A stretch of DNA of 64,000 nt, taken from the NCBI GenBank assembly GCA_951406725.2, contig OX597818.1, positions 47,058,001-47,122,000 of the forward strand, given 5' to 3'. Positions within the stretch are counted from its first letter, which is position 1; each line of letters starts with the position of its first letter. Position numbers and translations under genes: made by a program. Under the pieces are notes generated by a model. It searched no databases, was not told the DNA's origin, and was given only the letters and a program-made list of their open reading frames with translations. This stretch comes from Octopus vulgaris. Lineage: Eukaryota. Positions 4,496 through 62,398 of the stretch are shown piece after piece.

Positions 4496-4578
4496 TTCTC
4501 ATAATACCTAATTTACCAAAAGATTTCATACCGAAGGGTTAAGAACCAAGCTCAGCAAATCATCAGAATGATTGAAAA
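4496..4578 (-). ncRNA. Hammerhead ribozyme-like motif, partly decayed
   Basis: Minus strand: ATT-CTGATGA (4566-4560), stem II TGCTGAG/TTCGGTA with inner GGTT/AACC, GAAA, stem III ATC-TTTT-GGT, GTA triplet, then AAT. The base of stem II is a U-U mismatch. Confidence 0.55.
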
Positions 4579-5442
4579 GAATAGAATGGTGTGGGCTCTA
4601 TGCCACTGGAGGCCTGAAAGTGTCACTACCTCTTTGCTGGTCTTACAACTGTTGTAAAATTGTTGGGAAAAAGAAAAATCTTCCTGGTCACGTGCAGGAA
4701 AAATAAAATATAGAGTTCACTGGAGTTATGGTCTTTGTCTTTTCCTCCTCTGCATTTGACCTGCTTGATTTCTTACAGGAATTTTGTTCCTGTTTTTTAC
4801 AATTTAGTATATATGTGTGTGAGAGAGAGTAGAGACCATGTGCCTTCAGTGTTTGTTTGACTTCCTCTTTCACTAACCACCTGACAATTTAACACATGTC
4901 TTGGAGCAAATCATTGCCATGAAAATTGAACATTTATCTATTTTTTTCTATTGTCTGTTATATTAAATTGCTAATGAGGGATTCTTGTGGCGTGAAAAAA
5001 AAAACTGTCACACTTTGGGGTTGGTAAAAGTATGTATGCGATAGAGGAAAAGAGAAATTTAAATGAACCACATGTATACATACAAAAGCTATTGGTTGTA
5101 TGCACACATACATACATACACACAGATGACATTTAGTGCATGTCTGACAGAGTGGGGCAATATGTAGAAGTGCACATGCCATTAGTGTGTATATGTATGT
5201 GTGAACATGCCTATAACATTTGTTTGACTTTCTCACAATTTACTTGAAGATTTAATGCATACATCTTAGAACAAGTGATTGTCATAAAGATTGACCATCT
5301 CTCTGCTTACTCTATTATCAATGTTTGTAAGCCTAGTATTTATTCTATCGGTCTCTCTTTTGCCGAACCGCTAAGTTACGGCGACATAAACACACCAGCA
5401 TCGGTTGTCAAGCGATGTTGGGGGGACAAACATATACACATA

Positions 5443-5484
<42 letters not shown>

Positions 5485-8027
5485 CATATATACAACGAGC
5501 TTCTTTCAGTTTCTGTCTACCAAATCCACTCACAAGGCTTTAGTCAACCTGAGGCTATAGTAGAAGACACTTGCCCAAAGTGCCACGCAGTGGGACTGAA
5601 CCCAGAACCATGTGGTTGGTAAACAAGCTACTTACCACACAGCCACTCTTACGCCATTTGGATATCAGGGAATATATTAATATAACCTTTATTTAAGATT
5701 GTAAACTGTGATTTGTTAGTTTTAGATGCTATTTTCAGCAGGTTGAGTGACCATGTATCAGCTCCCTTTGAAACAAAATAGTTTTCCAATGAACAACTCT
5801 TCTGCTTTCTTTTCTTCTCCTTCCTGTCCTGCACTCTGCCTTACAGTTTCAATTTCATATCTTCATAGTAGGTAGCTGAAATAGATTTCTTTATTGGCCA
5901 CGCAGGGCTAAAAAAAAAGGGCCGAATTCCGATCAAAAGGGATCATGAAAAAAAAAAGGCGAGGACAATCAATAGGGATCGTATATCACAGAAATGTCAA
6001 TGTAAAATGGGAAAACAGATTAGGTTTGTCCATGGATACAAAAGCCTACGGAAAAGACCACGAAGCTGATTAAGTGCATTGGTCATCTTTAGAGATAGAA
6101 TGAGTTGTGATTTAGTTAGGGATGGTGATAGAAGAGAATTCAGCTACCTGGAATTCTTTTACTGCTTTCAGCCATTGGACTGGGGGTCATACTGGAACTT
6201 TCCTTCAGTTGTACTTGAGCCCAATACATATTTCAGTCTGGTACTTTTTTTTATCAGTTTTTGGAAGTTATCTCTTGATGTCAAGGGATGCAACGTAGCA
6301 CTCAATTTTCCACTGATATACATAAACACACACACACACACACACTGCACAGTTTCTGTCTACAAAATCCCACTCATGGGTGTGTGGTTAAGAAGTTTGC
6401 TTTGCAACCATGCAGTTCTGGTTTCAGTCCCTCTGCAAGATTTCTTACACAAGTGGCATCCAGAATAACCTCGGGTTAGCAGTTTCCTTATGAGTGGATT
6501 TTGGTAAATGGAAATTGTGTGGAAACTCATCATGTATATGTGTGTGTGTGTGTCTGTGAATTTGTATGCATGCATGTATGTGTGTACGTCTTTCACTAAT
6601 AGGTGGCTGGCAGAAACGTTAGCGCACCGGGAAAAATGCTTATCGGTATTTCGTCTGCTGTTATGTTCTGAGTTCAAATTCCGCCGAGGTCGACTTTGCC
6701 TGTCATCCTTTCGAGGTCCATAAATTAAATATCAGTTACACACTGGGATCGATGTAATCGACTTAATCCCTTTGTTTGTCCCCTCTGTGTTTAGCTCCTT
6801 GTGGGCAATAAAAGAACAACATCTTTCACTAATATATATATATTAACCTTTAGCGCACTAGGTGCATCATGTCACTATGAATTCTCTCTCCTCTCAATGT
6901 GGCACAATGCATTGACTCAAAATTCTTGAAGGCAGTGTCCCAGCATAACTGCAATCTAATGACTGAAACAAATGAAAGATTAAAGATGTGTGTGTGTGTG
7001 TGTGTGTGTTTGCCTCTCCACTTCCACGTAACCATTGCACAAAAACCGGTGTTGGTTTGTTTATGATGATGTAACTTAGTGGCTTGGCAAAAGAGACTAA
7101 TAGAATAAATACTAGACTTTAAAAAAACAAACAAAAAGAACAAAACAATAAATACAGGGGTCGATTTGTTTGGCTAAAAATAGTTCATGGCTGCATTTCA
7201 ATGACTGAATCGAGGAAAAGATAAAAGATTTAAAACCGTATTCTTTCTCGCACAAAATTATTCTGCTTGCTACCACTTACCTTTTAAGTGATAGCATTAA
7301 ACTTAAATTCTAGTTGAACCATCCCAAACCAAACAGCTGGATAAGTGAATCGCAGGCATTGCAAATAAAAAATAAGCAGCTATAAAAAATAAGCAGTAGG
7401 CGCAGGAGTGGCTGTGTGGTAAGTAGCTTGCTAACCAACCACACGGTTGCGGGTTCAGTCCCACTGCGTGGCATCTTGGGCAAGTGTCTTCTGCTATAGC
7501 CCCGGGCCGACCAATGCCTTGTGAGTGGATTTGGTAGACGGAAACTGAAAGAAGCCTGTCGTATATATGTATATATATGTATATGTGTGTGTGTTTGTGT
7601 GTCTGTGTTTGTCCCCCTAGCATTGCTTGACAACCGATGCTGGTGTGTTTACGTCCCCGTCACTTAGCGGTTCGGCAAAAAGAGACCGATAGAATAAGTA
7701 CTAAAAGGTGGTGCTCCAGCATGGCCGCAGTCAAATGACTGAAACAAGTAAAAGAGTAAAAGAGTAAAAGAGAGCTATATTTAGAAAAGTATCAAGTTAA
7801 AACCAATTAATGCAGTGCTTCTGATTCAATTGAAACATCACATAAAACCTGTATGCCTTGTTGTGGTGGCTCAGCTGTACATCATCGTTTTGACGCCTCC
7901 CGTCTACCGTTCTATGCCTGCATTGAGCAGCCGGATTTGTTTTTACAGTCAAATGCTCTTTCTGTTTCCAATCCTCACCTGTTTCCAAGCGAAGTAATAT
8001 TTCTTTATGGCTAGGTATGTTTCAATG

Positions 8028-8340
8028 AGGAGGCGCAATGGCCCAGTGGTTAGGGCAACGGACTCGTGGTCGTAGGATCGCGGTTTCGATTCCCAGACCG
8101 GGCATTGTGAGTGTTTAATGAGCGAAAACACCTAAATCTCCTCGAGGCTCTGGCAGGGGGTGGTGGCGATCCATGCTGTACTCTTTCGCCTCAATTTTCT
8201 CTCACTCTTTCTTCTGTTGGCCTGCTCGCTTAGCCAGCGGGGTGGCGTCATTTGAAGGCTAAAACAATGCGAAGTGCATTGTGACCAGCGATGTGTAACA
8301 ACATCTGATAGCCTGGTCGGTCACGGTGATCACGGTGATG
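8028..8340 (+). mobile_element. tRNA-derived SINE family D
   Basis: TGGCCCAGTGGTTAGG / GTTTCGATTCCC boxes; ATGTTTCAATGA flanks both sides; related copies at 37608 and 49430(-). Confidence 0.8.
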
Positions 8341-9182
8341 TTTCAATGAATGACAATGACACTGCTTGTCCAATAGCGATGCTTGTTTCATGTGATGTCA
8401 TGACAAGGACCTCCCCTTGACCACCACCACCACCACCATCATCATTATCGTTTAGCCCTTTCCATACCAACCCGGCTGAAACCACCTCTGACTCTGTAGT
8501 ACAGATGTCATGTTAGCATAAGTTTTGAATTAAAATCTTCCAACAAACATCATCATCATCTTTGTTTAACGTCCGCTTTCCATGCTAGCATGGGTTGGAC
8601 GATTTGACTGAGGACTGGCGAACTAGATGGCTGCACCAGGCTCCAATCTTGATCTCACAGAGTTTCTACAGATGGATGCTCTTCCTAATGCCAACCACTC
8701 CGAGAGTGTAGTGGGTGCTTTTATGTTCCTAACACTAGCTTAATGATTACTAAGTTATTTTACTTAATTCTTTGTTACATTTAAAATTGATTGAAAGAAA
8801 CACAGAGCACCTCAAAAGAAATACAGTAACGAAAGAGTTAATGTCTGCTTTCCATGCTAGCATGGGTTGGACGGTTTGACTGATGACTGGCAAGCCAGGA
8901 GGCTGCACTAGGCTCCACTCTGATCTGGCAAGGTTTCTACAGCTGGATGCTCTTCCTAACGCTAACCACTCTGAGAGTGCAGTGGGTGCTTTTTATGTGC
9001 CACCAGCACAAGGACCAATTAGGTGGCACTGGCATTGACCAAGCTTGAATGGTGCTTTTTATGTGCCACCGACATGGAGATGTGACCAAAACGGGAGGTT
9101 GGAAAAATTTTTTATTTATTACCTATTCTGCATTATATGTTGCATTCAAAATTCTTCAGACAAAGAGAATCAAATAATACTT

Positions 9183-9305
9183 AATTATTTGATTCTCTTT
9201 CTGAAGAATTTCTAATAGGAGATTTCTTAAATGTTTATCCTTCATGTACAATTTTGTAACTCTCCTATTTGCAAATGAAACATGGGTAATAGTGAATAAA
9301 TAATT
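9183..9305 (+). ncRNA. Type I hammerhead ribozyme with long stems I and II
   Basis: CTGAAGA 9201-9207; stem II ATTT/AAAT plus AATAGGAGA/TCTCCTATT; GAAA 9277-9280; minimal stem III AC-ATGG-GT; GTA triplet 9286-9288; stem I AATTATTTGATTCTCTTT pairs with ATAGTGAATAAATAATT (two U-U mismatches, one bulge). Confidence 0.7.
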
Positions 9306-9467
9306 CCAAAACTATTTTTTCCAGTCACCTGTTTTGGCATGTAATTACAACCCTAACCCTTACCATTTTTCTGCATGCTTCACACAATTCTAACATCTAC
9401 ATATAATTTTGGAGTACTGGAATATGCGACAAGAGGACACAACTTGGATTATAACCTTATCTACACA

Positions 9468-9502
<35 letters not shown>

Positions 9503-9512
<10 letters not shown>

Positions 9513-9725
9513 AGAGAAAAACCACTATTAAACAATTCAATAAACAAAGATGTTATTCACACTGCTATAAAACATCTACAATATTACTTTATAACATCTT
9601 TCTTTATTGAATTGTTTAATAGTAGTTTTTCTCTAAATTATATACATATATTATGTATTGTGAAATTTGATTTAAAATTGTTGAATTGAATTTTTCCCTG
9701 TAAGTTTTGGAATTATATTCCCTAC
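9503..9725. repeat. AT-rich fold-back (~55 bp arms) plus tail, same family as 61505-61785
   Basis: Arms ~9503-9557 and 9591-9644, followed by the same tail. Confidence 0.8.
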
Positions 9726-11759
9726 TACTACTACTACTATTAGTAGTAGTGGTATTATATATATAGATATATATATTGTGCATATACACAGACAACATTT
9801 CTTTTAGTTTCCATCTGCCAAATCCACTGACAAGGCTTTGGTCAGCCTAGAAGAAACATTTGTTCAAGTTGCCATGCAGTAGGACTAAACTTGAAACCAC
9901 ATGGTTGAGAGGCAAGCTTCTTAGACAGCCAGCACACCTACACATGTAGCCATGCATATACCTCCTTTTATCCATAGGATTGAATCCAAATTCAGGTGCC
10001 TGAGAAGCAAACTTCTTAACCACACATGAACATAAAATTAATACTTTTCATTTTTACTGTTTTCAAACAAATTTGGGTTTCAGTTTCAGGGAACTTTACT
10101 TCTGACAGTTGAATGATGATATTAATAGGATCCATAGATATGTACTTTTGAGTGTTTGCCATCCATTTTAGGCTGGGTATGTCTCACAAAGGGGTATAGG
10201 GTGGTTCCCAGAATACATCCATGTAAGAAACTGAAATGTTTTATATGAGCAATGTTTCACTTCAAAAATAGTTGGAGGTAAAATTACTGTAGTAGCTGAC
10301 ATCAGGATTGAATTAGCTTGAAAGAAAAAAAAGGTGCTATACAAAGGATCTATAGGCGCAGGAGTGGCTGTGTGGTAAGTAGCTTGCTTAACAACCTCAT
10401 AGTTCCGGGTTCAGTCCCACTGCGTGGCACCTTGGGCAAGTGTCTTCTACTATACTCTCAGGCTGACCAAAGCCTTATGAGTGGATTTGGTAGACGGAAA
10501 CTGAAAGAAGCCCATTGTATATATATGTATATGTATATATATTTCTTTACTACCCACAAGGGGCTAAACACAGAGGGGACAAACAAGGGCAGACAAAGGG
10601 ATTAAGTCGATTCCATTGACCCCAGTGCGTAACTGGTACTTAATTTATTGACCCCGAAAGGATGAAAGGCAAAGTCAACCTCGGCGGAATTTGAACTCAG
10701 AACGTAACGGCAGACGAAATATGGCTTCGCATTTCACCCGGCGTGCTACCGTTTCTGCCAGCTCGCCGCCTTAGTATCAGTATATATGTGTGTGTGTGTT
10801 TGTGTGTCTGTGTTTGTCCCCCCAACATCGCTTGACAACCGATGCTGGTGTGCTTACGTCCCCGTAACTTAGCGGTTCGGCAAAAGAGACCGATAGAATA
10901 AGTACTAGGCTTACAGAGAATAAGTCCTGGGGTCGATTTGCTCGACTAAAGGTGATGCTCCAGCATGGCTGCAGTCAAATGACTGAAACAAGTAAAAGAA
11001 TATTAGACTGATTCAGGGGTACCTTATCTATCATCTTTCAAATGTGTATCATGATGATTATTCAGTTTCACAAAGCTTTGTAAATTTTATGCACTTTTTA
11101 AAGACATTCTTTTATTCTTTTACTCTTTTACTTGTTTCAGTCATTTTGACTGCGGCCATGCTGGAGCACCGCCTTTAGTCGAGCAAATCGACCCCGGGAC
11201 TTATTCTCTTTAAGCCCAGCACTTATTCTATCGGTCTCTTTTTGCCGAACCGCTAAGTGACGGGGACGTAAACACACCAGCATCGGTTGTCAAGCAATGC
11301 TAGGGGGACAAACATATACATACACACACACACATATATATATATATACATATATACGACAGGCTTCTTTCAGTTTCCGTCTACCAAATCCACTCACAAG
11401 GCATTGGTTGGCCTGGGGCTATAGTAGAAGACACGTGCCCAAGATGCCATGCAGTGGGACTGAACCTGGAACCATGTGGTTGGTTAGCAAGCTACTTACC
11501 ATACAGCCACTCCTGCGCCTATATTGATATTTAATCTGGAATGTGATTGTTAAAGCTTTCAAAATTCTCTCATATGATAGATATAATATGAGTAAGTTAA
11601 AAAATTTTTCCCACGAATTTCTCTGGTTATGGAGGTTAAGAGAGTTTTGTGTATTAATATTTGTATCTTGAGAACTGATTATAATCTATCAAGGGATAAG
11701 GCTCTTAACATTGTTTTTTTTACACCCGAGAAGAGTTTCTAGTTTACTTTATATTTTTA

Positions 11760-15294: not shown

Positions 15295-16499
15295 GAGCCT
15301 TTTTCAATATGGAAAACATCTCTGGCCATGAGAAATATTGCCTGGAAACAAGTGAGGGTTGCTGACTGGAAGGGTGTCCAACTGTAGAAAATTTGCCTCA
15401 ACAAATTCCATCTAATCCATCCAAGCATGGCAAAGCGGATGTTAAATGATGATGATCACACACACACACACACACACACACTTGTACAAGAAAAATTGAG
15501 ATAGAGAGGAAAAGGGATACGTAAGAGTAATGATGGCCTAATGGATTATGAGTAATAGTTGAGGAGCTGCAGTAGCAAAACAAAGCCACTAAGGAGAAGT
15601 GGTGAAGAAGGGTAAAAAGCACAAAAGAGACCTTGTAGTGGTGAAACAATGGGATTATGTTTAAGTTCTATGGTGTTCACGAAGACAAGCGTGGTGGTTT
15701 TGTGTAAGTGCAAAAGTGGTTTATGGTTGTTTAGTCCATTTTCTTCTTGGAGTAATATTGTGACTTCCTATACTAAACAAAGTTGGCACTTGAGGTTACT
15801 TCCTAATTTCAGTATATTCATGGGCAGTTGCAGAAATACAAACAGACCGTGATATTTTAAAGTTGTTATTGCTTTCTTGTAAGTCCCATATATATAACTA
15901 GAGAGACTTGTGAAGAGTTTCTTGTTCAACAAATCATCATCATCATCATCATCATCATCGTTTAACGTCTGCTTTCCATGCTAGCATGGGTTGGATGATT
16001 TGACTGAGGTCTGACAAACCAGATGGCTGCACCAGGCTCCAATCTGATCTGGAAGAGTTTCTATAGCTGGATGCCCTTCCTAACACCAACCACTCTGAGA
16101 GTGTAGTGGGTGCTTTTACGTGCCACTGGCATGAGGGCCACTCATGTGGTACTGGCAACAGCCACGCTCAAATGGTGTTTTTTACGTGTCACCTGCACAG
16201 GAGCCAGTCCAGTGGTACTGGCAACAACCTCACTTGAATGTTTCTTCTTATGCCACCGACACAAGTGCCAGTAAGGTGATGCTGGTAACGATCACACTCA
16301 AATGGAAGCTGGTCAGCTGCTCTGGCAACGATCACGCTCAGATGGTGCTCTTAGTGCTCCAGTCTGTATGACTAGAATCATGTCATGAGGCTGTTTCCTG
16401 TTAATCCATCATTCAACCCTTCAACATGGTACATCAAAGAATTAATAAGGCAAACATCTTTAGGGAGAGAGATGTTTGCTTGCTGTTGTAGTTACATGT

Positions 16500-18095
16500 A
16501 GGGACAGACATGGTGTTGCATGACAGGCAGTTAGAATTAAATGAGCTGATAGAGCTGGTGAAATATGAGAAAGAATTTTGACCAAATTTCTGATGAAAAT
16601 CTTGTGTCTATGAAATTTTGAAAATTGAAGAGAGATCAAATCCAAGAATTTTTTGGTTATGTTGGTTTAGACATCCTAACTGAAAAGTGCATTATTACCA
16701 TCATCATCATCATTTGATATCTGCTTTCCATGCTGGCATGGGTTGGATGGGTTGACATGAAGCTAGCTAGCCGGGAGCTGTCCAGACTCCAGCTGTCTGT
16801 TGCAGTATGGTTTCTATGGCTGGATGCCCTTCCTAACGCCAACCACTTAACAGAGTATACTGGGTACTTTTTACATGCCATTGGCATGGGTGCTTTTTAA
16901 GTGGCACCAGCACCTCAAAGGACAAGCCAGCATGTGTGGAAAACAGCAATTTTACTTAGGTTGACATGTCTTATCAAGTACAGCAAATCACATCTCCAGG
17001 TCCCTTGTCATTTCCTCATTGAGGCTGAACATCTGAAGATCCTTTCTCACCACTTTGTCCCACATCTTCCTGAGTCTACTCCTTCCACAGGAACCCTCCA
17101 CAATTAGAGTTCAGCACTTCTTTACGCAGCTGTTCTCATCCATATGCATCATATGACCAAACCAACGCAGTCTTATCTCCTGCACACAACATCTGATGCC
17201 TCTTATACCCAGTTTTCCTCTTAAATCGTTTACACTTTCATGCATACACACTAGCCATTACTCATCAAGCAGAGCATGCTAGCTTCATTTCTTTCAAGCC
17301 TTCTCAAATCCTCTGTTGTCGAAGCCCATGTTTCACTGCCATGTAACATTGCTGTACCTACACAGGCATCAGAGGCCCTTAGTTACCAACATAGTAGAAG
17401 CTCTGTGAACTTCACCCAACCCATTCTTATCCTAGCAACTACACTTTCAGAACTTCCTTCTCCGCTGCTAACTTGGTCTCCTAAATAACAGAAGCTATCT
17501 ACTACTTCTAATGATCCCCCCAAGCATTTGAGAGAACTTATTGTCAGCATATTTTTAGTGCTTACTGTACCTGCACATTTGCCGCACACGAAGACTTTTT
17601 ATCTCTGTTAACCTTCCTTTGATACTGCTACACCTCTTATGTGTACAAAGCTTGCGCTGGGTACAACATATGGAGTTTCTACCAATGCCCTTCTTACATA
17701 GCAAGTAAGGCCATCTCTCAGAAAGTACTTGTGACTGCACGATTTTTCCAGTTACATTTTTAGTCATAGCTGTAAGTGGTTCATCTCTACTTTATAATTT
17801 TTGAAAATCCACTACTGTTAAGTGCCTCATTGTAATGATGTGTAGCACTTTTGAAATCGTGGTAGGATAAAGAGGAAATGTTTATTAATACTGGGAGCTG
17901 AAATATGGAGAATGTTAAGTAAACAGCTTTCATGGATGTGAAAATTTACTAGTGCCTAAATTTAATGTGATATTTAGGAAGTTTACAGAGATCTTTAAAT
18001 CTAAATCTCTGAAAAACATTACAAGGTCTCTCCTAAATTTTCCCATACTGTTGTTGTTTATATTTCTCAAAAGAACAAACCTATTGTTGCAATAG
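16500..18095 (-). mobile_element. Penelope-like RT remnant interrupted by an RTE fragment (~16695-17725)
   Basis: KFRRDLVMFFRDLDLKISVNFLNITLNL and FSKFHRHKIFIRNLVK (PLE-like) flank FCYLGD...ARIRMGWVKF (RTE). Confidence 0.65.
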
Positions 18096-18104
18096 ATATT
18101 TGTC

Positions 18105-19700
18105 ATCACCATCGTTTAACATCCGTTTTCTATGCTAGCATGTGTTGGATGGTTCGACTGCAGTCTGGGAAGCCAGGAGGCTGCACCAGGCTCCAGTCTG
18201 ATCTAGCAGTGCTTCTACAGCTGGATGCCCTTCCTAACACCAACCACTACATGAGTGTAGTGGGTGCTTTTTATGTGTCACCAGTACAGGGGCCAGAGAA
18301 GGCTGGCAATGGACATGATCGGTTGGTGCTTCTTACGTACCACTGGCACTGATGCCAGTCAAGGCAGCGCTGGCATTGGCCACGTTCGCATGGTGCTTTT
18401 TACGTGCCACCAGCATGGGTATCACAACTGCAATTTCCATTTGATTTTTATTTTGGTGTTGGTGTTGACGTACTTGACTCAATAGATCTCCTCAAGCACA
18501 GCAGATCGCCCTATGATCCAAGGTAAGCACAGCAGGCCGTCCTGCGAGCCATGAACTCACTTCATTCATCGGGTCTTCGCAGTCACAGCATATCTCCAGA
18601 GGTCTTGGCCTCTGTGAGGCCCAACGTTCGAAGGTCATGCTTGACCACCTCATCCTATGTCTTCCTGGGTCTACCTCTACCCCAGATTCCTTCAACTGTT
18701 TGGGAGTGGCACTTCTTCACATATCTCTCCTCATCCATCCGTAGTACATGACCATACCAATGCAAACGTCTCTCCTGCATGCCACATCCAATGCTTCTTA
18801 TGTCCAACATTTCTTTCAGAGCGCTTACACTCTGTTGTGCGTGCACACTGATATTACACATCCAGCTTCATTTCTTTCAAGCCTACGCATGTCCTTCACA
18901 GTCAAAGCCCATGTTTCACTGCTGTGAAGCATGACAGTTCGCACACATGTGTTGTACAATCTACCTGTCACTCTGAGCAAGAGACCCTTTGTCACCAGTA
19001 GGGGTAGAAGCTTTCTAAACTTTGCCCAGGCTATTCTTATTCTAGTGGTAGCACTCTCTGAGCAGCCACCCCCACGACTAACTTGGTCACCTAGGTAGCG
19101 GAAGCTATCAACTATTAGTTTCTCTCCCTGGAGTGTGATGGAATCTGTTTTCTGAGTATCTGTGGTGCCTATTGCCCCTTTGCATCTGCCACACACGAAA
19201 GCTGTCTTCTCGGTTAATTTTCCTTTGATGTTGCTGCACCTCTTATGTGTCCATAGCTTACACTGGCTACATCTTATGGAGTTTCTGCCTACATCTTTAA
19301 TTCAGATCGAGCAGGGCCACCTCCCTGAGGGTGTGTGTGATGAGTTCGCCTTCCTACTTACTATAACTTTGGTCTTTGCTACATTGACTCTAAGGCCTTT
19401 TGATTCTAAACCTTGTTTCCACACCCAAAATTTTTTTTCTAGTTCCAGTAGTGATTCTGCTAGGAGGGCCAGGTCATCAGCATAGAGGAGCTCCCAGGGG
19501 CAATCCGTCTTGAATTCCTCTGTTATTGCCTGGAGGACTATGATGAATAAAAGGGGACTGAGGGCTGAACCTTGGTGAACCCCTACTTCTACCTGGAATT
19601 CTTCACTATATTCATTGCCAATCCTAACCTTACTAATGGCCTCTGTAATAAGGCCTGTACAGCCCTTATTAACCATTCGTCAATCTCCAGTTTCCACATC
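18105..19700 (-). mobile_element. 5'-truncated RTE-clade LINE (RT 3' half, 3' UTR)
   Basis: GVHQGSALSPLLF, LLYADD, FRYLGD, RLHWYGHVLRM, RGRGRPRKT; frameshifted. Confidence 0.92.
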
Positions 19701-20407: not shown

Positions 20408-20612
20408 AACCGTGTTTCGTGGTCTGCTACCACAACAGCTCCTTTATAGGATCCAGTTAGCTCAAGACATCATCAGGAGGAACCACGTCCGGTTTCGGCT
20501 CCTACTCCTCTACCGTTTTGACGTGCCCCCCCCTTCGGAGGTGTCTTCAGTTTCTGGTGTTGGGTGCGTGTCTTCTTTCTTCTGTTCCCTGGCCTCTTTG
20601 ATGTATCGTCAG
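20408..20612 (-). ncRNA. Cluster of hammerhead-like cores (three CTGANGA, two GAAAC)
   Basis: Minus strand CTGACGA 20612-20606, CTGAAGA 20550-20544, CTGATGA 20476-20470. GAGGA after the GTA triplet pairs with TCCTC before the third core. GAAAC at 20496 and 20418. The stem II junction is irregular. Confidence 0.45.
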
Positions 20613-21559: not shown

Positions 21560-22122
21560 AACTTTCTTCCTCCACTTGGTACATTTGTGCAACACCATGT
21601 AATATGTCACCTGCTTATCCATTCTGTTTTTCCCCATCATGTGTTGAGGGTAGGACTGCACAGCACAAAGTTTGTAAAATCTTTTAGTATCTATGAGGTT
21701 TTGAAAAAGTGAAGAGAGATCAATTCTAGGAAATTCTTGGTTTTGTTGGTTTGGACATCCTAACTGAAAATTGCGTTATACTGTAAAATTTTCCAGTTAC
21801 GTTTTTACCCTTAGCAGTAAGTGGTTCATCTCTACACTTTGCTATTTTTGAAAAATCTATTGTTAAGTGCCTCATTGTGATGATGTGGAGCACTTTTAAA
21901 TCACGTGTCATTCTAAGATAGAGAGGAAATGTTTACTAATACTTGGCACTGTGAAATGGGGGAATATTAGGCAGATAGAGTTTTTATGGATGTTTGCTAG
22001 TGCCTAAATTTAATGTGATATTTAGAAAGTTTACAGTGATCTAAGTCCCTGAAAAATATTACAAGGTTTCTCCTAAATTTTTCTATACTGTGGTTGTTCA
22101 TATTTCTTAAAACAACAAACGG
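21560..22122 (-). mobile_element. Penelope-like RT C-terminal/linker remnant
   Basis: VVLRNMNNHSIEKFRRNLVIFFRDL; homologous to 16500-16690 plus 17742-18095. Confidence 0.6.
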
Positions 22123-22935
22123 ATTGTACCCCCAACATCGCTTGACAACCGATGGTGGTGTGTTTATGTCCCCGTAACTTAGCGGTTCGGCAAAAGAGAC
22201 CGATAGATTAAGTACTAGGCTTCCAAAGAATAAGTCCTGGGGGTCGATTTGTTCGACTAAAAGGCGGTGCTCCAGCATGGCCACAGTCACATGACTGAAA
22301 CAAGTAAAAGAATAAAAGAGAATATGTATACATCTGCCCATATCATCATCATCGTTTAACGTCCGTTTTCCGCGCTAGCACGGGTTGGACGGTTTCGACC
22401 GGGGTCTGGGGAGCTAGGGACTGCCCCAGGCTCCAGTCTAGTCTGGCAGTGTTTCTACAGCTGGATGCCCTTCCATATGTATATATATATATAGATGTCA
22501 GTGTGCATACTTGACAGAGTGTAAGTACCTTAAGAGAGTCAATGTAGTTAACTAGCCCCCTCCTCTGAAATTGCTGGCCTAGTGCCAAAATTTGAAGCCA
22601 ATTTTACTGATCAGATTCAAACATTTTAATCAGTAGTGTTATTTTGTACATCCTATATTCCATACCAATACAAACTGAGATTTGATGTTGTTGAGGCGAA
22701 ATGTTTCACTTTCAGTATTATTCTTTTATTTGTTTCAGTCATTTGACTGTGGCCATATTGGAGCACCACCTTAAAGGGCTTTTTAGTTGAAGAAATTGAC
22801 CACAAGACTTATTCTTTGTAAGCCTAGTACTTACTCTATTGTGCTCTTTTGCTGAACTGCTAAGTTATGGGGATGTAAACATACCAACATCTGTTGTCAA
22901 GCAATGGTGGGGGAACAAACACAGACACACACACA

Positions 22936-29246: not shown

Positions 29247-30444
29247 CAGGGGTTGGACAAAATAATGGAAACATCTTAAAATTACAGCTTGAATTCTACT
29301 AGGTATGGACTCGTACTCAGTTTGAATTGTTTCCATTCTTCAGCTCAAACAGGCTCCAGTTCTTATAGTGATGATGGTGGAGGATATCGGCTCCTTACTT
29401 ATTTTTCTAAAATGCACCATAAATGTTCAATAATATTGAGACCTGGTGACTGTGGTGGCCAGATAAGATGTTCCTCGTGCTATTCAGGAACAACTTTAGC
29501 TGTGTGAATTTAGTGCATTATCATCCTGAAAGATTGCGTTTCCCTCCAGAAATAGTCCCACAGCCATAGGATGAATTTGATCAGATAAAATGCTTAAATA
29601 GTCTTGACTATTAATTCTGCCATGAAATGAAACCATTGGCCTGACGGATTTTTTCAATATATAGCCCCCTCCCTGATCATCACAGATCCTCCTCCATGTT
29701 TAACAGTTGGAAGAATATAGTCTGGGTCAAATGCTTCTTTTGGCTGTCTCCACATGTATACTCGGCTGGTGGTTGGAAATAAAGTAAAGGATGACTTGTC
29801 TGAGTAAATAACATTCTTCCACTGCTCTAGGGACCAATTTTGTAGGTTTTTATTCCTCTCTAAACGCTTTGCAACATTTGTTTTTGAAAGTAGTAGTTTT
29901 CTGATTGCAGCACTCCTGTGAAATCTGGCTTCGTGCAGCTCCTGGCAAACAGTTTTTGTGGAAACTGGGCTCTTGAGGTGGTCATTAAGCTCTGCAGTAA
30001 TTTTGGGAGCTGTACTTTAGTGATCCTTTCTAACAATTCGCATAAGATTCCGATGGTCCCTATCTGAAAGCATTGGTTTTCTTCCAGAGTTTTGTTGCAA
30101 CGAGGAGATTTTTTTCCCTCTTTCTCAAAGGCTGTCATTACCTTCGAGACAGTACTTCTTGATACACCAAACATTTCGGCTGTTTTCATTACGCTAGCGC
30201 CTACCATAAGAGCACCAACAATTTGACCTCTTTGAAAGTTCGATAGATCTGTCATTTTGATGAATTTCAATTACCTTTTTCTGATGATATCTGGAAAGAA
30301 CCAGCAATTTTAGCAAAACATATTAAGCAACACTAATAATCAATCAAAAAACATAAAAATAAACAAGCTTTTGACAGTTTTATAGGTATTTCAAAATTAT
30401 GATGCTATGATGCTAGGTGTTTCCATTATTTTGTCCAACCCCTG
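29247..30444 (-). mobile_element. Tc1-like DNA transposon, degenerate transposase
   Basis: TA-flanked TIRs CAGGGGTTGGACAAAATAATGGAAACA; HTH-like start MTDLSNFQRGQIVGA...FGVSRSTVSK; frameshifted. Confidence 0.9.
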
Positions 30445-34300: not shown

Positions 34301-35184
34301 CCATCTGATTCGTGGCCGTTGCCAGCTTCATCTGGTCTCTGTGCCGGTGGCACATAAAAAGCACCATCCGATTGTGGCCGTTTGCCAGCCTCGTGAGGCA
34401 CCTGTGCCGGTGGCACGTAAAAAGCACCCACTACACTCATGGAGTGGTTGGCGTTAGGAAGGGCATCCAGCTGTAGAAACACTGCCAGATCAGACTGGGT
34501 CTGGTGCAGCCTTCTGGCTTCCCAAACTCCAGTTGAACCGTCCAACCCATGCTAGCATGGAAAGCGGACGTTAAACGACAATGATGATGATGATGATGAT
34601 GATATATATATATATATGCAAATATAAGAATGAAAAAATTAAAGTCAGTCAGATGTACACAGTGAATAGTAGAAATGATGTTTCAAGAATGGTTCTTTGT
34701 CAGACAGAGGAAGAAGTCCATGGAAGACGGAAAGGAGGAAGGAGCAGATAGTCTCAAGAAAAGTATGTGTGACATTATATGATACAAAAATAGGACTTAT
34801 TCTTTGTAAGCCTAGTAATTATACTATCAGTCTCTTTTGCCGAACTGCTAAATTATGGGGACATAAACACACCAACATAGGTTGTCAAGCAATGGTGGAG
34901 GGACAAATACAGACACAAAAAAAAACACATACAACGGGCTTCTTTCAGTTTCCATCTACCAAATCCACTCACAAGGCTTTGGTCAGCCCAAGGCTATAGT
35001 AGAAGACATTTGCCCAAGGTGCCATGCAGTGGGATTGAACCTGGAACCATGTGGTTCGTAAGCAAGCTTCTTATCACACAGCCACACCTGTGCCTATGTA
35101 TATATATATTTTTAATTGCCAATGCATGAAACTCTCAGACCTTGAGCCACTCTGTTACTTCTGCTAAACATTAATATATATATA

Positions 35185-35433
35185 CTGTTGTGTCTGGAGA
35201 TAGTAATTTTCTTTTTGCGCCTTATAATGTAACACAATCACTGGTAAAATCTCCACTTATTTCTTATTTTTATTTTCCTAAAATTTTTGTTGCATCTTGC
35301 AGACTATTGAAAAGGTTGCAAGATGCAACGAAAATTTTAGGAAAATAAAAATAAGAATTAAGTGGAAATTTTACCAGTGAGTGTGTTACATTATAAGGCA
35401 CAAAAAGAAAATGACTCTCCCCAGACACAACAG
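35185..35433. repeat. Fold-back with ~117 bp arms and a 15 nt loop; hammerhead-like variant at the apex
   Basis: CTGTTGTGTCTGG...GCATCTTGCA pairs with TGCAAGATGC...CCAGACACAACAG. Confidence 0.9.
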
Positions 35434-36039
35434 AATATCCTTCAACACACGAACTCATATAAAGAATCTTGCAAACCAAATCCCAAAACGAAATTTAATA
35501 AAATATATATACTCATATTTTGAGTTCTGTTTTTCCTGTTTTCATCCTGTACTCATATGATGCATAGCATATTTATGTGCGTTTATTTGTTTCTATGCCA
35601 AGTTATGTATAAAAACAATTTAACATTAAACTAAAGGACTACTCAATAATTTTGTGTAAAAAACATTTATTAAGCATAAAACTTTTACAAAGAAAAGGTT
35701 GACAGGGACTTCAAAGTTTTGACTTGCTTGCCTTCATCAGATTTTTTATATGTGGATGTCCATATATGTGTGTGTGTGTGTGTATCTGCCTTCAAAAACT
35801 ACATATATATGATAGGCTTCTTTCAATTTCTATCTACCAAATCCACTCATAAGGCTTTGGTCGGCCTGACTTGCCCAATGTAGCACGCAGTGGGACTGAA
35901 CCCAAAATCATGTGGTTGGGAAGCAAGCTTCTTATCCCACAGTCAAGCCTGCGCCTATGTGTGTATGTGTATGTATATGTGTGTACGTATGTGTGTGTGT
36001 GTATAGTGTTTGTATATGTTGTCTGTGTATGTATGTAAG

Positions 36040-39089: not shown

Positions 39090-39410
39090 GTAACACAACA
39101 ATTAACTGCCCCGTCCATGACACAGGTTTATGCCAACAGATAAATGTTGTATATCGAATCCAACGTAACAAATGCAACAAGTTCTATGTGGGTAGCACAA
39201 CAAGACCGTTACACATTTGCATCAGAGAACATCTGAACACAAGAGCCTTCTCCTTCAGAAAACATAGATGCTGGATCACTGACAAAAGCATAACAGTCAC
39301 AATTGACCAATGACAGAAATTTGGGTAGTCTAATAATTAAGGAAGCTATCCTCACAGACTAGGGCCCCAAATTAACAACAGGCTAGAGGTTGGTAATCAA
39401 TATATTATTT
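39090..39410 (+). mobile_element. Penelope-like element GIY-YIG endonuclease remnant
   Basis: NVVYRIQRNKCNKFYVGSTTRPLHICIREHL matches the PLE GIY-YIG signature. Confidence 0.8.
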
Positions 39411-44041: not shown

Positions 44042-45377
44042 AAAATTATTTGCTGGAAATATAAATCTTGATGGATATTCTCAAACAAAAGAAATGATGG
44101 ATGATGAAAGTCAACAAGAAGTGCAGAATCTCCCACCTGGAAGGTTTAATGACATTAGACTAAAGTTTGAACAAGCTAAACTCACTTCACAGGTGGAAAA
44201 TGACAATAGTTCAAACGACAGTGTCTTTCACAATACTGCCCCTATTCCTAAACCAGCACCAAGGTCATCAGCAGTGATCCCACCAAAACCTACAGTCAAA
44301 GTTAAAAAAGTTGATCTTGAAGAAAAGCCTACTCCTCCTGTTGTCATTCCACGTGTCAAGCGAGATTCACTTATAAAGAATGAAAGCAATGAGGTAGCAC
44401 AAACGGAAATTGCTAACTCAGAGAGTAATAACGGTAACTGTCAACTTCGACCGTTTGTACCAAATCACAAGAGAGGGTTCTCTGATTGTATTACCAGTCA
44501 ACGTAGTAACTCGTATGAAAAAGAAAGAAAATCTGACGGTTTTGCAAATTATGGATGTGAGGACATAAATCGTTCTAACGAAGTTTTGAACAAATCTAAA
44601 AGTTTCCAAACACCTAAAAAACCTGAAATTGCAGCTAGGCCTAACACCGCTTTATACGGTCGGGACGGTCTTCAACATAAAAAAGTGACTAGGCACTCAT
44701 CGGTAAGAGATTCTAATAGAAAAGATACTACAGCAAACACCTCACCATTATGCAGTGATACCAAATCTCAGGTTGACATGATGGATAAAGAAAATACAGA
44801 AAGCAAAATTCCTAAAATTCCGCCAAAACCATTTAATCTTCCAACTGGTACACCACCTAAAAAACCACCTCGGACTTATAAACATGATTTATTTTTAAAA
44901 AATAAGGAATCTGTTGTCTTTAAAGAAAATGAGATATATGAGATGACAACTCCTAATAAAATATCTAAACCAAAAACTGAAAATGCTCACAAAAGGCCAC
45001 CCCGTCCACCCCCACCTCGGCCACCTGCCCCTAAATCTCCATTATCAGATAAAGAAAAAGATAAGGGATTGAGGAATTCTTTAAAAACTGTCAACAGTAA
45101 CTCAAAGCCCTCAGTTGTTAAAAATTCTGTGATATCAGATGAAAACAATTCAAAATCTAGTTTTAACCTGAGGAGATGTTTAAGTGTGGAAAGTATACAT
45201 CCTGACAATAAGTCTAATTGTAATAATGCAATCTATTTAGAAACATCGAAGTTTGGCAGATCTCGTGATGATTTAGATGCACTGAACAATGTAGAGGTGT
45301 ATGTAGATGAACAAGGTTATGCCGTTCCTTACAAATTTTATATCAAAGACGCACCAAACTCAGCTAATAGCAAAGAT
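44042..45377 (+). CDS. Large coding exon, proline-rich disordered N-terminal region; tentatively DENND2/ST5-like DENN-domain Rab GEF
   Basis: Only long non-repeat ORF in the window. Acceptor TTTTGTTTCAG ends at 44041; the frame is open from the acceptor and the first in-frame ATG is at 44094. GTAAGT donor at 45378 (phase 0). PxxP-rich. PKKPPRTY resembles the PKPxRTF motif I recall from DENND2 proteins; the family call is inference and needs BLAST. Confidence 0.85.
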
Positions 45378-47107
45378 GTAAGTAAATTCAGATTTATTGT
45401 ATTTAAATTTTTAACCTTTTTTTCCGTGTATTATATTTTTGTGTCCCTCACTTCCATTATTTTATTATGTATGTATGTTCTCAAATGTTTATTTCACCTT
45501 TCTGCGTGACACATCTTGTATTATATTGTAGGTTTAGAGGCCAATGAAGAAACCATTTTTCTAGTTATCTCAGGCATGGTTGCATGGTTAAGAAGCTTGG
45601 TTTGCAACCATGTGGTTTCAGGTTCAGTCTCACAGCACTGTGGGCAAGTGTCTTTTACTATATATAGCCCAAGGCTAACCAATACCTTGTGAGTGAATTT
45701 GGTTGACAGAAACTGTAGATGAATATAATTTGCAGGACTGCATACTAGGACGTCCGCACAAATTCAAACTTGTAAAACAGTCCTACCCATTACACTCGTG
45801 GTTACTATTTCAAATGTCCTCGTTTTGGCGCGCTAAATTACCGGAAAAACTTGGTTCTTTTGCTAAAATTTTCTTGAGAACATTTCTTAGTAGTAAGACC
45901 ATAGTGGATCTATTTCTAGCATAAGGGTGTCTACATAGTGGTTTCCCTCTAATATGTGTGTATATATATATATATATATGACCTTATATTATTTATTGAA
46001 CTACTTTAATAGGGACAGATAATTGGAAAACATGTGTTCTTCATGTGAGCATCCAAATTTTTCTAATCCTTTTCTAAAAAATCCAGAGCTAATTATGTTT
46101 ACCATTAAAACAGAATTAAAATACTTATAAGCACCATTTGAGCGTGATCGGTGCCAGCATCGCCTTACTGGCACATGTACTGGTGGCATGTGAAAGACAG
46201 CATTTGAGCATGGTCATTGCCAGTGCCACCGGACTGGCTCCTGTGCAGGTGGCACGTAAAAAGCACCATTTGAGCAAAGTCGTTGCCAGAACTGCCTCAC
46301 TGGCCCTCGTGCTGGTGGCATGTAAAAGCCCCCACTACGCTCTCGGAGTGGTTGGCATTAGGAAGAGCATCCAGATTGGAGCCTGGTGCAGCCTTCTGGC
46401 TCACCAGTCCCCAGTCAAACCATCCAACCCATGCCAGCACAGAAAGCAGGTGTTAAATGATGAAGATGATGATAAGACATTTGTTTTTGGCAGTGAGCAG
46501 AAAACTGATGATGCTCCAGGGTCAAGTATAGTTTCATTTATAAGTCCTCACCTCCTTCGTACTTAGAATAAACATTCAACATAGGTTGGACTCTTGTCTA
46601 TGTGATTCTATTAAAAGAAGCTAAGTGTCCATCTGTAGTAAAACAGCCATCCCTGTTTCTTTGTCATGCCCCAACCTTTTGCCTGGCTCATGGTAACTTC
46701 TCATTTCATCTCCCTCTCTCAGCTGAGAGGTTCTTGACTTGCAAGCTACTTGGCAACCCCACAGGTGCTGGTGCCATGTAAAAATTACCTGTGCCAGCAC
46801 CACATAAAAAGCACCTGGTGCACTCTGTAGGGGTTGGCATTAGGAAGGGTATCCAGTTGTAGAAACCATGCTAAAACAGAATTGGAACCTGGTGCAGCTT
46901 TCTGATTTGTTAGTTCCTATCAAACTGTCCAACCCATGCCAGCATGGAAAATGGATATTAAAGTAGGATTATTTGTGTGTCTTTATAAAAAGAGTCTGCC
47001 AATTTGAAATGAGTTTGCCAAGTGCCATGCACAAAATTCTTGGCTCCTGAGTCACTTTGTAATTTCATGCACACATACTCACCATCATCACCACCATCAT
47101 CGTTTAA

Positions 47108-55092: not shown

Positions 55093-55331
55093 GTAAGATT
55101 TTTTCATTTTCTTATCTATGTATTTTTAATGTTGGCACTTTAGTAACTATCCCTTTAACTCATTATTTTTTTATAGTTAAGATACTTGATTATAAATTTC
55201 AATGAGATAAAAAAATTTTTTTAAATGGCATAGATGTAGATGTGTGGTAAGAAGTTTGCTTCTGAACCACATGATTCTGAGTTCAGTCCTGCTGCATGAT
55301 ACCTTGGGCAAGTTTTTTTTTACTATAGCCT

Positions 55332-57944: not shown

Positions 57945-58015
<71 letters not shown>

Positions 58016-58688: not shown

Positions 58689-58731
<43 letters not shown>

Positions 58732-59755: not shown

Positions 59756-59858
59756 GTGAGGCAGAAAATAAACCAGTCTTATGCTGTTATGCACAGAACT
59801 GTGAAACAACCAACTGAAACTTCTCAGTCAGAAAGACCTTTGTCCGAAAACGATTCAG
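59756..59858 (+). CDS. Internal coding exon of the same gene (VRQKINQSYAVMHRTVKQPTETSQSERPLSENDS)
   Basis: CTCTTCATTTCCTAG acceptor, 103 nt open in phase 0/1, CAG|GTAAAT donor. VRQKINQSY and SENDS resemble the segments I recall preceding the uDENN domain of DENND2/ST5 (inference). Confidence 0.78.
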
Positions 59859-60405
59859 GTAAATGCAGACAAATTTTGCTCTTTCTCATTAATTTTGTTG
59901 CGCTCTGTCGGTTATAACGACAAGGGTTCCAGTTGATCTAATCAACGGAAACAGCCTGCTTGTGAGATTAACTTGCAAGTGGCTGAGCACTCCACAGACA
60001 CATGTATCCTTAATGTAGTTCTCAGAGAGGTTCAGCGTAACTCAGGTTGTGTTAATGCTGGCCCTTTGAAAGACAGGTACTTCTCAGCTGAGCAGACTGG
60101 AGGAACATGAAATGAAGTGTCTTGCACAAGGATGCAACATGTTACTGGGAATTGAACTCATGACCTTATGAGCGTGAGCTGAGTACCCTAACCACATAAG
60201 CCATTTGCTTCCACGCTATTGTAGATAAAGTTTTCCTCTCAACTCTTATGATTTTGTATTTGTGTGGTTAAGAAAGTCGCTTTGCAAGCACAAAGTTTCA
60301 ATCCCAATTGAAGTACCTTGGGCAAGTGTCTTCTACAGCCCCAGGCTGACCAATACTTTGTGAGTAAATTTGATAGATGCTAACTGAGTGGAAGCTCTGT
60401 GTGTA

Positions 60406-61477
60406 TGTTCCACGTCTCTGTCCTTCTGTTGTAACAAAATGTCTTCTCCGTTTTCGTTCTGTTGATTTTTTCGTCTTCTTGTGATGTCCTGTACGTATAT
60501 ATATATATTTATATATGCATGTATATATACATATAGATGTCGGTACGTACATATATGTTTGTATGTATGCATATATTTTATTTATTACACTATTGTCTGA
60601 CCGCTTCGCGTCGGGTTCGTTTGAATTTTCGATTTTTCGAATTCTCACTTCGTTCCGTCTCCTTCCTCCTTGTCCGTTTTTACAGTTTACTACAATGATG
60701 CGAAACTCTCTCCCTTTGCTTTAACTTCCCCTCTCTCTCTCTCTTGCTCTCTCTACCTCACCCTTCTCTCTAGCCTGTGTTATCCTCTATCTGTCTCTCT
60801 CTCTCTATCTGCTCCTCCTCACTTTCATCACTGCTAAACCTTTCCACCTGTTGCATTCAGGCCATAAGGTCATGTTTCCTCACGCTCGCCAGTTACCTTC
60901 TCATCCCAGCCAGAACAAAGGCCTCCGTTCATCTTTTTCGTTTGTTCTCTTGTTTATTTTTGTTTTCTCGTATTGTAGTTTAATTCTCATTATGTATTTT
61001 CGTGTACATGTATCTTTAATTTTGTATTATTTTTTTCTTGTATGTATTTTTTTGTGCAGTTCTTTGTTACGTACCTTTTTGTGTTACATTTTTCTTGCTC
61101 GTTTACCCCTGTACGAGTTTATTTTATTTTAATTCTCTCGTCGGAAGGCCTAGCTTGACCTTACGTCTTCTGTCTCTGCCTTCGAAACACGTGTCTGCTA
61201 GCGACAGCTGATGAAGGGGATTTTTCCTTGTGTAGCATGTCCTGTACTTCGTTTTTCTGCTGCACATAATTGTTTTTCCCGTTTTCGTTTTGTCTTGTTC
61301 CACGTCTCTGTCCTTCTGTTGTAACAAAATGTCTTCTCCGTTTTCGTTCTGTTGATTTTTTTCTTCTTCTTGTGATGTCCTGTACGTATATATATATATT
61401 TATATATGCATGTATATATACATGTAGATGCCGGTACGTACATATATGTTTGTATGTATGCATATATTTTATTTATT

Positions 61478-61480
<3 letters not shown>
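60406..61480 (+). mobile_element. Non-coding element with ~185 bp direct terminal repeats (PLE pseudo-LTR or retrozyme-like)
   Basis: 60406-60589 is nearly identical to 61296-61480 (period 890). No credible ORF. Hammerhead half-cores at 61178-61245. Confidence 0.6.
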
Positions 61481-61504
<24 letters not shown>

Positions 61505-61516
<12 letters not shown>

Positions 61517-61785
61517 TAGAAAAAAAACCCACCTTTTATCAATTCAATAACGAAAAATTGAATTATATCATTTAGAAAAATTACATATTATAGAAAGATT
61601 AAATATCTTTCTATAATATGTAATTTATCTAAATGGTATAATTTAATTTTTCATTATTGAATTGATAAAAAGTTTTTTTTTTCTCTAATTTATATATATA
61701 TATATATTATATTTTGTGAAATTTGATTTAGTATTTCTAAATTGAATTTTCCCCAGTAAGTTTGGAATTATATTCCCTCATATTA
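61505..61785. repeat. AT-rich fold-back (~95 bp arms) plus a tail shared with 9503-9725
   Basis: AATTAGAAAA...AGAAAGAT pairs with ATCTTTCT...TCTAATT; tail GTGAAATTTGATTT...GGAATTATATTCCCT. Confidence 0.85.
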
Positions 61786-61886
61786 TTATTATTATATATA
61801 TAAAAATGCGTGTGTGCAACAAACTAGAGAAAATCGTCTTACCTCCAGGGAGAACATCTGAAAGATGAAATACCTGGAAAAGGATA

Positions 61887-61964
61887 ATGTGGGACCTGCA
61901 GGTTTCAGATTTTACAAGATATGTCTACCACCCATATCTTGTTCTATCTTTATCAGCCAAGCAT
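61887..61964 (-). ncRNA. Inverted copy of the hammerhead with a G8>A core mutation (probably inactive)
   Basis: Reverse complement of 62132-62209, but the core reads CTGATAA (change at 61951), breaking the C3-G8 pair. Confidence 0.7.
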
Positions 61965-62131
61965 ATATGTATTTTTCCCTCACGGGCTATTCTTTACTGG
62001 AAGGCGATACTCTAGTATTGCATTACTAATTTATTGAAGCTTCTTCACCATTTTCCGTACTGTTGGCGTTCGGTGTTTCAGTCGAGGGTAATAGCATTAA
62101 TGTGGTAACATCGTAGATTTTGTCATGGTAT

Positions 62132-62209
62132 ATGCTTGGCTGATGAAGATAGAATAAGATATGGGTGGTAGACATATCTTGTAAAATCTGAAACCTGCAG
62201 GTCCCACAT
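62132..62209 (+). ncRNA. Type I hammerhead ribozyme, canonical core, palindromic stem III
   Basis: CTGATGA 62140-62146; stem II AGAT/ATCT extended by AAGATATG/CATATCTT; GAAA 62190-62193; stem III ACCTGCAGGT (palindrome); GTC cleavage triplet 62201-62203; stem I TGG/CCA plus ATG/CAT across a 2-nt bulge. Confidence 0.8.
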
Positions 62210-62398
62210 TATCCTTTTCCAGGTATTTCATCTTTCAGATGTTCTCCCTGGAGGTAAGACGATTTTCTCTAGTTTGTTGCACACATGCATTTTTGCTAAT
62301 ACATACGCGGTGAAGCTATACATTAGCGTCGTATTTTTACGTTCGCTATTTCCAGTAAATATCGGTACTTAGTTGTGCCATTTATTTACTACTTTGTG

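Follow-up and report, generated by a model that had tools for sequence, protein, structure and literature searches.

We analysed a 64,000-nucleotide (nt) stretch of the Octopus vulgaris genome (contig OX597818.1 of assembly GCA_951406725.2, positions 47,058,001 to 47,122,000), referred to here as the window and numbered from its first letter, for hammerhead ribozymes and the Penelope-like elements (PLEs) that may carry them. Two motifs, at 61.2 kb (61144-61214, forward strand) and 20.5 kb (20470-20542, reverse strand), probably represent a non-circularly permuted, split-core hammerhead that is predicted from its sequence to be self-cleaving and whose chain is open between A9 and G10.1. The same layout was found at the ends of published Naiads, a group of PLEs that dominates many invertebrate genomes. 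On balance, we lean towards the broader view that Naiads carry permuted hammerheads, of type CSG in nematodes and of a core-open seventh wiring in cnidarians, an acanthocephalan, an arthropod and octopus, and that cleavage in the cell sets many of their 5' ends.

The hammerhead motifs of the window probably derive from the 3' ends of PLEs that inserted independently of one another, four of them type I or decayed copies and two of them rewired. The split-core wiring at 20.5 and 61.2 kb appears to be new, and the remaining motifs are known biology. If our reading is correct, hammerhead wirings, a list held complete at six, gain another, and Naiads without hammerheads are no longer an apparent exception.

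The proposed split-core layout in the window

Read 5' to 3', the proposed fold would start with the 5' strand of stem II, followed by the 3' strand of stem III, the U-H cleavage site and the 3' strand of stem I. After a linker of 2-7 nt would come the 3' strand of stem II, GAAA and the 5' strand of stem III, and, after another linker, the 5' strand of stem I and the CUGANGA box. Stem II would form the stem of a hairpin enclosing the cleavage block, and an additional helix (helix X) would join the segment that follows the 5' strand of stem II to the one preceding the 5' strand of stem I, stapling the open core together. Because helix X corresponds to the helix seen in type CSG, the layout can be viewed as a CSG chain that has been circularized and then opened again within the core.

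At 61.2 kb, all positions can pair in stem II (61144-61149/61178-61183, 6/6), helix X (61150-61154/61197-61201, 5/5) and stem I (61170-61174/61203-61207, 5/5), as can six of the seven in stem III (61162-61168/61187-61193); GAAA lies at 61184-61187, CUGAUGA at 61208-61214, and the predicted cut after 61169. The 20.5 kb motif is unrelated in sequence and has seven pairs in stem I, four in stem III, six in helix X and four of six in a decayed stem II, with a cut predicted after 20511. In both motifs GAAA precedes CUGAUGA, the CUGANGA, GAAA and U-H core bases are all present together with A15.1-U16.1, and stems I, II and III adjoin the core. A preliminary description of the window had listed both among its hammerhead or hammerhead-like motifs, which holds, but had missed that their layout is permuted. 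Block C, in which the box runs directly into a stem II strand, is interrupted in both motifs, placing them outside the orders CGS, GSC, SCG, SGC, CSG and GCS; these six follow from the assumption that the box and adjacent stem strands are uninterrupted, as set out in the sections on permutation of Eckert et al. (2023, PMC10085705).

Custom hammerhead descriptors were scored against dinucleotide shuffles built in 1-kb blocks. Both motifs fit the split-core descriptors, and two matches were reached in 0/200 and 0/400 shuffles. With descriptors for types I-III, the 61.2 kb motif (61208+) was not returned and the 20.5 kb motif (20476-) only as a weak type I with stems of 2 pairs, and the SGC, CSG and GCS descriptors yielded no match in the window. 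An Rfam scan of the window produced 71 weak matches, with neither a hammerhead nor a twister among them. The CUGANGA box alone is hardly enriched in the window (38 observed versus 29.8 ± 5.5 expected from shuffles).

The 61.2 kb motif is part of a non-coding, multi-copy element (60406-61484, forward strand), a partial tandem with a 189-bp 3' duplicate of 97% identity, which ends in (TA)n. Contigs from three sequencing runs align to the element (706, 891 and 370), and those of four runs placed on 60600-61380 represent a multi-copy family whose depth is greatest at the box. The family has G at 61167 in ~99% of depth units (8708/8775, 8638/8702 and 839/852 in runs X1, X2 and X7), which repairs the stem III mismatch of the window copy and restores C15.2-G16.2. 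Among the changes listed for the family, a 3-base insertion is located past the five stem III pairs nearest the core. With the loose ends seen in each of the four runs, helix X would grow to 9/10 pairs, as judged by eye at a consensus agreement of 0.65-0.76. The motif layout and the (TA)n target, from which alone its affiliation is drawn, suggest that this element is likely a non-autonomous Naiad-type PLE. The 20.5 kb motif may likewise belong to a Naiad-type element, to judge by its layout.

Other readings of the 61.2 kb motif were rejected. Read as type II, it offers no stem I following the GUC, which is itself missing from abundant relatives; as type GCS, its descriptor gave 0 matches; and for a core assembled by splicing, with the acceptor-like AG right before G10.1 in the family, there is no donor after the box. 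A pyrimidine tract and CAG in the family stop exactly before G10.1 (window 61135-61144, with changes at 61141-61142), resembling the intron end at the D. virilis Penelope hammerhead. At 61218-61249, a return joint and loose ends in some X2 and X7 contigs suggest tandem units of ~55 nt, each with a CUGAUGA box. In the 20.5 kb motif, a second CUGAAGA box (20550-20544, reverse strand) stands just before the 5' strand of stem II, where CSG has its box; speculatively, it may represent an intermediate between the CSG and split-core wirings.

Relatives of the split-core motif and competing explanations

An independent family was obtained with a search pattern that fixed only the 3' strand of stem II, GAAAC and the box. 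The pattern identified 119 metagenome loci (from 5 of 64 collection parts) and 25 viral loci, and 29 of the former constitute one family (L031-L144) from two assemblies. The strict split-core descriptor passes six loci, all within this family, and none of the 90 non-family metagenome loci; a relaxed version adds two more of the family. None of the 25 viral loci has the split-core layout, and none of the 119 metagenome loci has a standard SGC or GCS reading. The upstream strands are retained in 12 family copies, where pairing holds in 94.6% of 372 cells, versus 24-52% when the partners are slid, and the first pair of stem I is swapped between U-A (6) and C-G (5). Between families, the sequences of all four helices vary while pairing is kept, as read by eye, and the metagenome family is ~90% alike to Acropora Naiad ends by the same means. 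One locus (L088) has an open reading frame (ORF) upstream of the 3' motif, to which the atlas gave no family and which we presume to resemble a reverse transcriptase (RT) C-terminus. In another (L036:883-1019), immediately past the box, a local duplication starts over from the GAAA block.

The 5' ends of this family pile up close to the predicted cut, which lies 11 nt upstream of stem II. From 28 of the 29 copies (L092 was left out), six were dropped where the contig or locus ended; among the 22 informative copies, homology is lost within 13 nt upstream of stem II in 13, in the next 33 nt in none, and beyond that in nine. A constant hazard would yield this pile-up with a probability of ~1e-9. 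Its simplest reading is that RT copied a 3' cleavage product to its end, in which case run-off at the cut end would give rise to short insertions. Under that reading, the pile-up at the predicted cut would represent genomic evidence on the open question of whether PLE hammerheads cleave in vivo.

Published Naiad ends extend the layout to named animals. Naiads were reported without canonical hammerheads, with some records marked 'HHR_core' or 'HHR_half_core' and Naiad_Ovul flagged half-core, in the portions of PMC8557442 that deal with them. In the part of its consensus file read by eye (fewer than all 54 records), nine records have the split-core layout with all four helices: Naiad_Obim, Naiad_Ovul, three from Acropora (of which Naiad_Aacu has two mismatches), Naiad-2_Movir, Naiad_Plae, and one each from Clytia and an arthropod, the last two organisms being assigned by file order. 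Stem II in these records comprises 4-6 pairs, G-C first, formed by the upstream strand, which is not replaced by the bases after the box. By contrast with this core-open wiring, 8/8 nematode Naiad records read by eye as type CSG, in which stems I-III can form together with the extra helix (four of the record names follow file order). The CUGANGA box is also present in several spider, ostracod, squid and hemichordate Naiad ends, which gave no clean fit, and in one Naiad record stem II may be a hairpin placed between the cleavage site and GAAA. The two split-core motifs of the window share their layout with Naiad_Obim and Naiad_Ovul, but not their sequence. A text search of the Craig supplement (PMC8557442) for five window motifs found none, although line breaks can defeat such a search. 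We found no literature linking Naiad PLEs to hammerheads or permuted hammerheads in a survey that covered subscription papers thinly, so that absence is unproven.

Several points weigh against a split-core ribozyme. Its descriptors were written and tuned after the motifs had been seen, and neither window copy passes the strict version, owing to the stem III mismatch at 61.2 kb and the decayed stem II at 20.5 kb, which lacks its two base pairs adjoining the core. When folding is pseudoknot-free, the box at 61.2 kb is sequestered by a rival hairpin, and no Naiad protein remnant lies beside either motif within the window. In the metagenome family, six of the 12 copies pass strictly, two pass only the relaxed descriptor and four fail, while two GC-rich non-family loci pass the relaxed descriptor. 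Covariation within the family is weak, with both sides changing in 1/31 pairs and 21/500 shuffles reaching the score. The pile-up comes from one family in two assemblies, and some of its homology ends are only 3 nt long. Several other Naiad records did not fit, and Eckert et al., in the sections concerned (PMC10085705), assume that the box and stem II are inseparable.

Possibly, the permuted motif is real but non-catalytic, a hammerhead-derived pseudoknot serving as a recognition or pausing signal at which RT stalls, so that copies end nearby. We consider this a minor but genuine possibility, as the literature we searched gave no tested precedent for a core opened between A9 and G10.1, in vitro cutting by minimal PLE hammerheads is weak (as described in parts of PMC4209133), and 8/9 tested Xenopus retrozyme dimers did not cut (according to the available sections of bioRxiv 10.64898/2026.07.22.740005). 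However, in intact examples across phyla all catalytic bases are retained, along with A15.1-U16.1, G10.1-C11.1 and a base other than G at position 17. In addition, the predicted scissile bond is where the 5' ends stop, no more than 11-13 nt upstream, and in vitro cleavage has been shown for the related types CSG and SGC. An active form that is an ordinary SGC hammerhead appears improbable; in it, the strand 3' of the box would, after transcription, take over the pairing of stem II from the upstream strand, leaving the upstream helix as no more than a regulatory or folding state. Four pairs (two of them G-U) are indeed possible at 61.2 kb between the bases following the box and the 3' strand of stem II, and 4/5 can pair at 20.5 kb as judged by eye, but the SGC descriptor returned 0 matches in the window and in the 119 metagenome loci. 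Moreover, in the coral, box-jelly, acanthocephalan and arthropod Naiad ends inspected by eye, the downstream bases are unpaired and the upstream strand makes 5-6 pairs, G-C first.

The preliminary description had proposed that this genome hosts a population of ribozyme-processed, non-autonomous retroelements mobilized by PLEs, a view under which the cassettes would be circular-RNA-producing retrozymes moved by the PLEs whose remnants lie in the window. Retrozymes derive from the pseudo-long terminal repeats (pseudo-LTRs) of PLEs, as reported in parts of the bioRxiv study cited above, and the 60.4-61.5 kb element is non-coding and multi-copy; it is the only one in the window that looks like a separate non-coding family. 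For the most part, however, this proposal fared poorly and we regard it as unlikely: hammerheads in tandem repeats are absent from the window, where 0 of 54 tandem-repeat rows overlap a supported hammerhead, the fold-backs match truncated PLE insertions, and the probable Hydra-clade remnants described below are stop-broken and have no hammerhead in the window. It would be most surprising if the permuted readings were simply an over-fit of a flexible descriptor to AT-rich repeats. The descriptors were indeed post hoc, a loose type I scan gives 16 matches per shuffled window, and the published Naiad records were read by eye, but the strands left free by the search pattern pair in an independent metagenome family, the stem III mismatch disappears with the base prevalent in the 61.2 kb family, and no control locus passes the strict descriptor. 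We therefore retain the split-core, self-cleaving hammerhead as the preferred reading of both motifs.

Other retroelement ends and remnants in the window

Conventional hammerheads are also present in the window. A minimal type I descriptor, modelled on the criteria given in Cervera and de la Pena (2014, PMC4209133), matches at 35307+ and 62140+, i.e., two matches versus 0.05 expected, a number reached in 1/200 shuffles; motif density in the window exceeds that of dinucleotide shuffles. An energy-anchored type I scan retained 62140 only, and a loose scan was uninformative, with 30 matches observed against 16 expected per shuffled window. The motif at 35304-35340 (forward strand) is an intact type I minimal hammerhead with an extra base, G10.1-C11.1 and stems I/II of 3/6 pairs; it has the U3-A8 covariation variant described earlier in PLE hammerheads (in the pages of PMC4209133 on that variant). 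It belongs to a fold-back PLE end (35180-35438) composed of an inverted 5'-truncated copy and a direct copy, with (TA)n at its left and a ~70-bp tail at its right. The second intact type I hammerhead (62137-62206, forward strand) has a 43-nt stem II domain, a palindromic stem III and a predicted cut after 62203. The segment 62129-62294 has an inverted copy of 98% identity at 61802-61967 (reverse strand), in which the hammerhead box at 61956- differs solely by G8 to A.

Both the 35.3 and 62.1 kb motifs show the order, the short or palindromic helix III, the R10.1-Y11.1 pair and the stem I of PLE minimal type I hammerheads. Their cassettes consist of an inverted 5'-truncated copy with a one-sided tail and (TA)n as flanks or target, and match the published shape of PLE insertions, namely a 5'-truncated 3' end joined to an inverted 5'-truncated copy, with a one-sided tail and a microsatellite target (as outlined in parts of PMC8557442). 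The suspected link between hammerheads and PLEs holds in this respect, and type I hammerheads at PLE ends in Octopus are expected, known biology.

A decayed type I hammerhead in Hydra style lies at 4505-4575 (reverse strand), with stems I/II/III of 3/7/3 pairs. It fits (4566-) only if stem II is allowed to be closed by a U.U mismatch, a feature tabulated for Hydra-clade hammerheads in the supplement of PMC8557442. The U.U-tolerant descriptor gave four matches in the window versus 0.13 expected; one of them, a type I match at 18070-, sits within a Hydra coding remnant and is probably due to chance, and a type III match at 16590+, which does likewise, was also treated as chance. A possible dead hammerhead at 35700-35740 (reverse strand) has G12A and no stem I, and 10/200 shuffles reach the same count as 35740-. 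A short inverted repeat with CUGAAGA boxes occupies 9149-9300 (forward strand), where the long type I reading (9201+) does not exceed chance, its score being expected about twice per shuffled window. Thus, among the eight hammerhead motifs listed in the preliminary description, those at 4.5, 20.5, 35.3, 61.2, 61.9 and 62.1 kb stand, whereas that at 9.2 kb is ascribed to chance and that at 35.7 kb does not rise clearly above the shuffles. Their placement in fold-backs or repeats next to (TA)n is true of the 35.3 and 61.9/62.1 kb motifs and, as a partial tandem ending in (TA)n, of the 61.2 kb motif, but not of those at 4.5 and 20.5 kb. Fold-back, (TA)n-flanked termini in which a hammerhead is absent occur at 61491-61795 and 9488-9740 (both forward strand) and share one family, whose inverted arm is ~90 bp shorter than the direct copy and of which partial copies lie at 22.9, 45.9 and 51.4 kb.

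Two PLE ORF remnants were identified on the reverse strand. The first (15714-18109) is in pieces (18109-17744, 16695-16544 and, weakly, 15929-15714), interrupted by a long interspersed nuclear element (LINE) piece and other repeats, and the second (21676-22127) represents the C-terminal part of RT with 79-84% identity to the first. A protein search with the 21.6-22.1 kb frame gave seven proteins, 6/7 of which are RT-like pieces or full ORFs; the top representative match (P0001) is an unrelated fish repeat protein and was set aside, and a word-based protein search with a 59-aa remnant gave no match. In full-length relatives, the motifs RW[KR] (117/119), DKT (114/119), YRDD (119/119) and CxCX5C (116/119) are conserved. 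A profile of these 119 relatives matches the window at 21.7-21.9 kb (E 7e-10) and 16.55-16.69 kb (E 2e-6), and more weakly at 17.9-18.1 kb (E 2e-4), 17.7-17.9 kb (E 2e-3) and 15.7-15.9 kb. Because their homologues carry the RW[KR], DKT and CxCX5C marks, both remnants are provisionally assigned to Hydra-clade PLEs, as stop-broken, dead fragments; the marks (RWK, DKT, the CxCX5C linker and the C-terminal endonuclease) were seen in the homologues, and the window remnants lack those motif positions.

The PLE remnant proposed at 21.6-22.1 kb is therefore real, as is that at 16.5-18.1 kb in its pieces at 18.1-17.7 and 16.7-16.5 kb, although much of the latter span is a LINE insertion (17.0-17.7 kb) with 66% identity to the LINE at 18.6-19.3 kb. 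LINE RT remnants extend over 18450-19680 and 17000-17743 (reverse strand; RVT_1 E 5.7e-13, PHD finger E 4e-5) and presumably belong to the RTE clade. For the proposed GIY-YIG endonuclease remnant (39095-39390, forward strand, with a short inversion at its 5' end) we obtained only a weak match (Pfam E 0.047, atlas score 0.95); it is probably from another PLE with a C-terminal endonuclease, and no hammerhead was found downstream of it. Within the window, none of the protein remnants is followed at its 3' end by a supported hammerhead or joined to one, and the test of adjacency between hammerheads and PLE ORFs suggested earlier fails there.

The window as a whole is AT-rich, with abundant microsatellites and dispersed repeats. 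Its longest ORF (44.0-45.5 kb) includes a DENND2/ST5-like host exon (44094-45401, forward strand), 99% identical to an O. vulgaris DENN-domain protein and with further ST5/DENND2 matches in Argonauta and cuttlefish. A segment in the ORF list (29654-30270, reverse strand) is, we assume, a Tc1/mariner-like transposase remnant. The window is a patchwork of unrelated retroelement ends around the DENND2-like exon and does not form the single window-wide system that was first envisaged.

Comparison with known systems

PLEs of O. vulgaris have already been catalogued, with 31 families recently active, in an account whose main text, as far as available, does not mention hammerheads or ribozymes (PMC13282606). 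The 35.3, 61.9/62.1 and 4.5 kb motifs resemble the minimal type I hammerheads of PLE pseudo-LTRs (as treated in parts of PMC4209133 and PMC8557442), with which they share U3-A8, the extra base after A9, the palindromic helix III and close pairs on opposite strands. In minor respects they differ, as evidenced by the 43-nt stem II domain with A-U closure at 62.1 kb and stems I of only three contiguous pairs. The ORF remnants are comparable to Hydra-clade PLEs such as Hydra-1_Obim (in the sections of PMC8557442 on that clade) in that their homologues carry RW[KR], DKT and CxCX5C, whereas the window copies themselves are dead fragments. Non-LTR retrozymes, as depicted in parts of PMC7229834 and bioRxiv 10.64898/2026.07.22.740005, are similarly non-coding, hammerhead-bearing kin of PLE pseudo-LTRs, but are tandem repeats with a type I hammerhead per unit, of which the window has none.

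The split-core motifs are comparable to Naiads, with which they have in common core halves that are reversed at the 3' end and, for the 61.2 kb element, (TA)n targeting and partial tandems, although no permuted fold is given in the Naiad account of PMC8557442 as consulted. The junction at which they are open is one where natural hammerheads tolerate an extra base (A9-G10.1, as noted in PMC4209133). In their architecture they have evident similarities to the SGC and CSG hammerheads, which were validated by in vitro cleavage (Eckert et al. 2023, PMC10085705): a cyclic block order, a short linker between stems I and II, a helix tying the free ends of those stems, and a full core. Examples of SGC and CSG, in the parts of that paper describing them, are environmental only, from metatranscriptomes or metagenomes and not from genomes of known organisms. 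The window motifs differ from them in being open between A9 and G10.1 and in sitting in animal retroelement ends and, if our reading is correct, non-circular permutations would move from anonymous environmental contigs to high-copy retroelements of animals.

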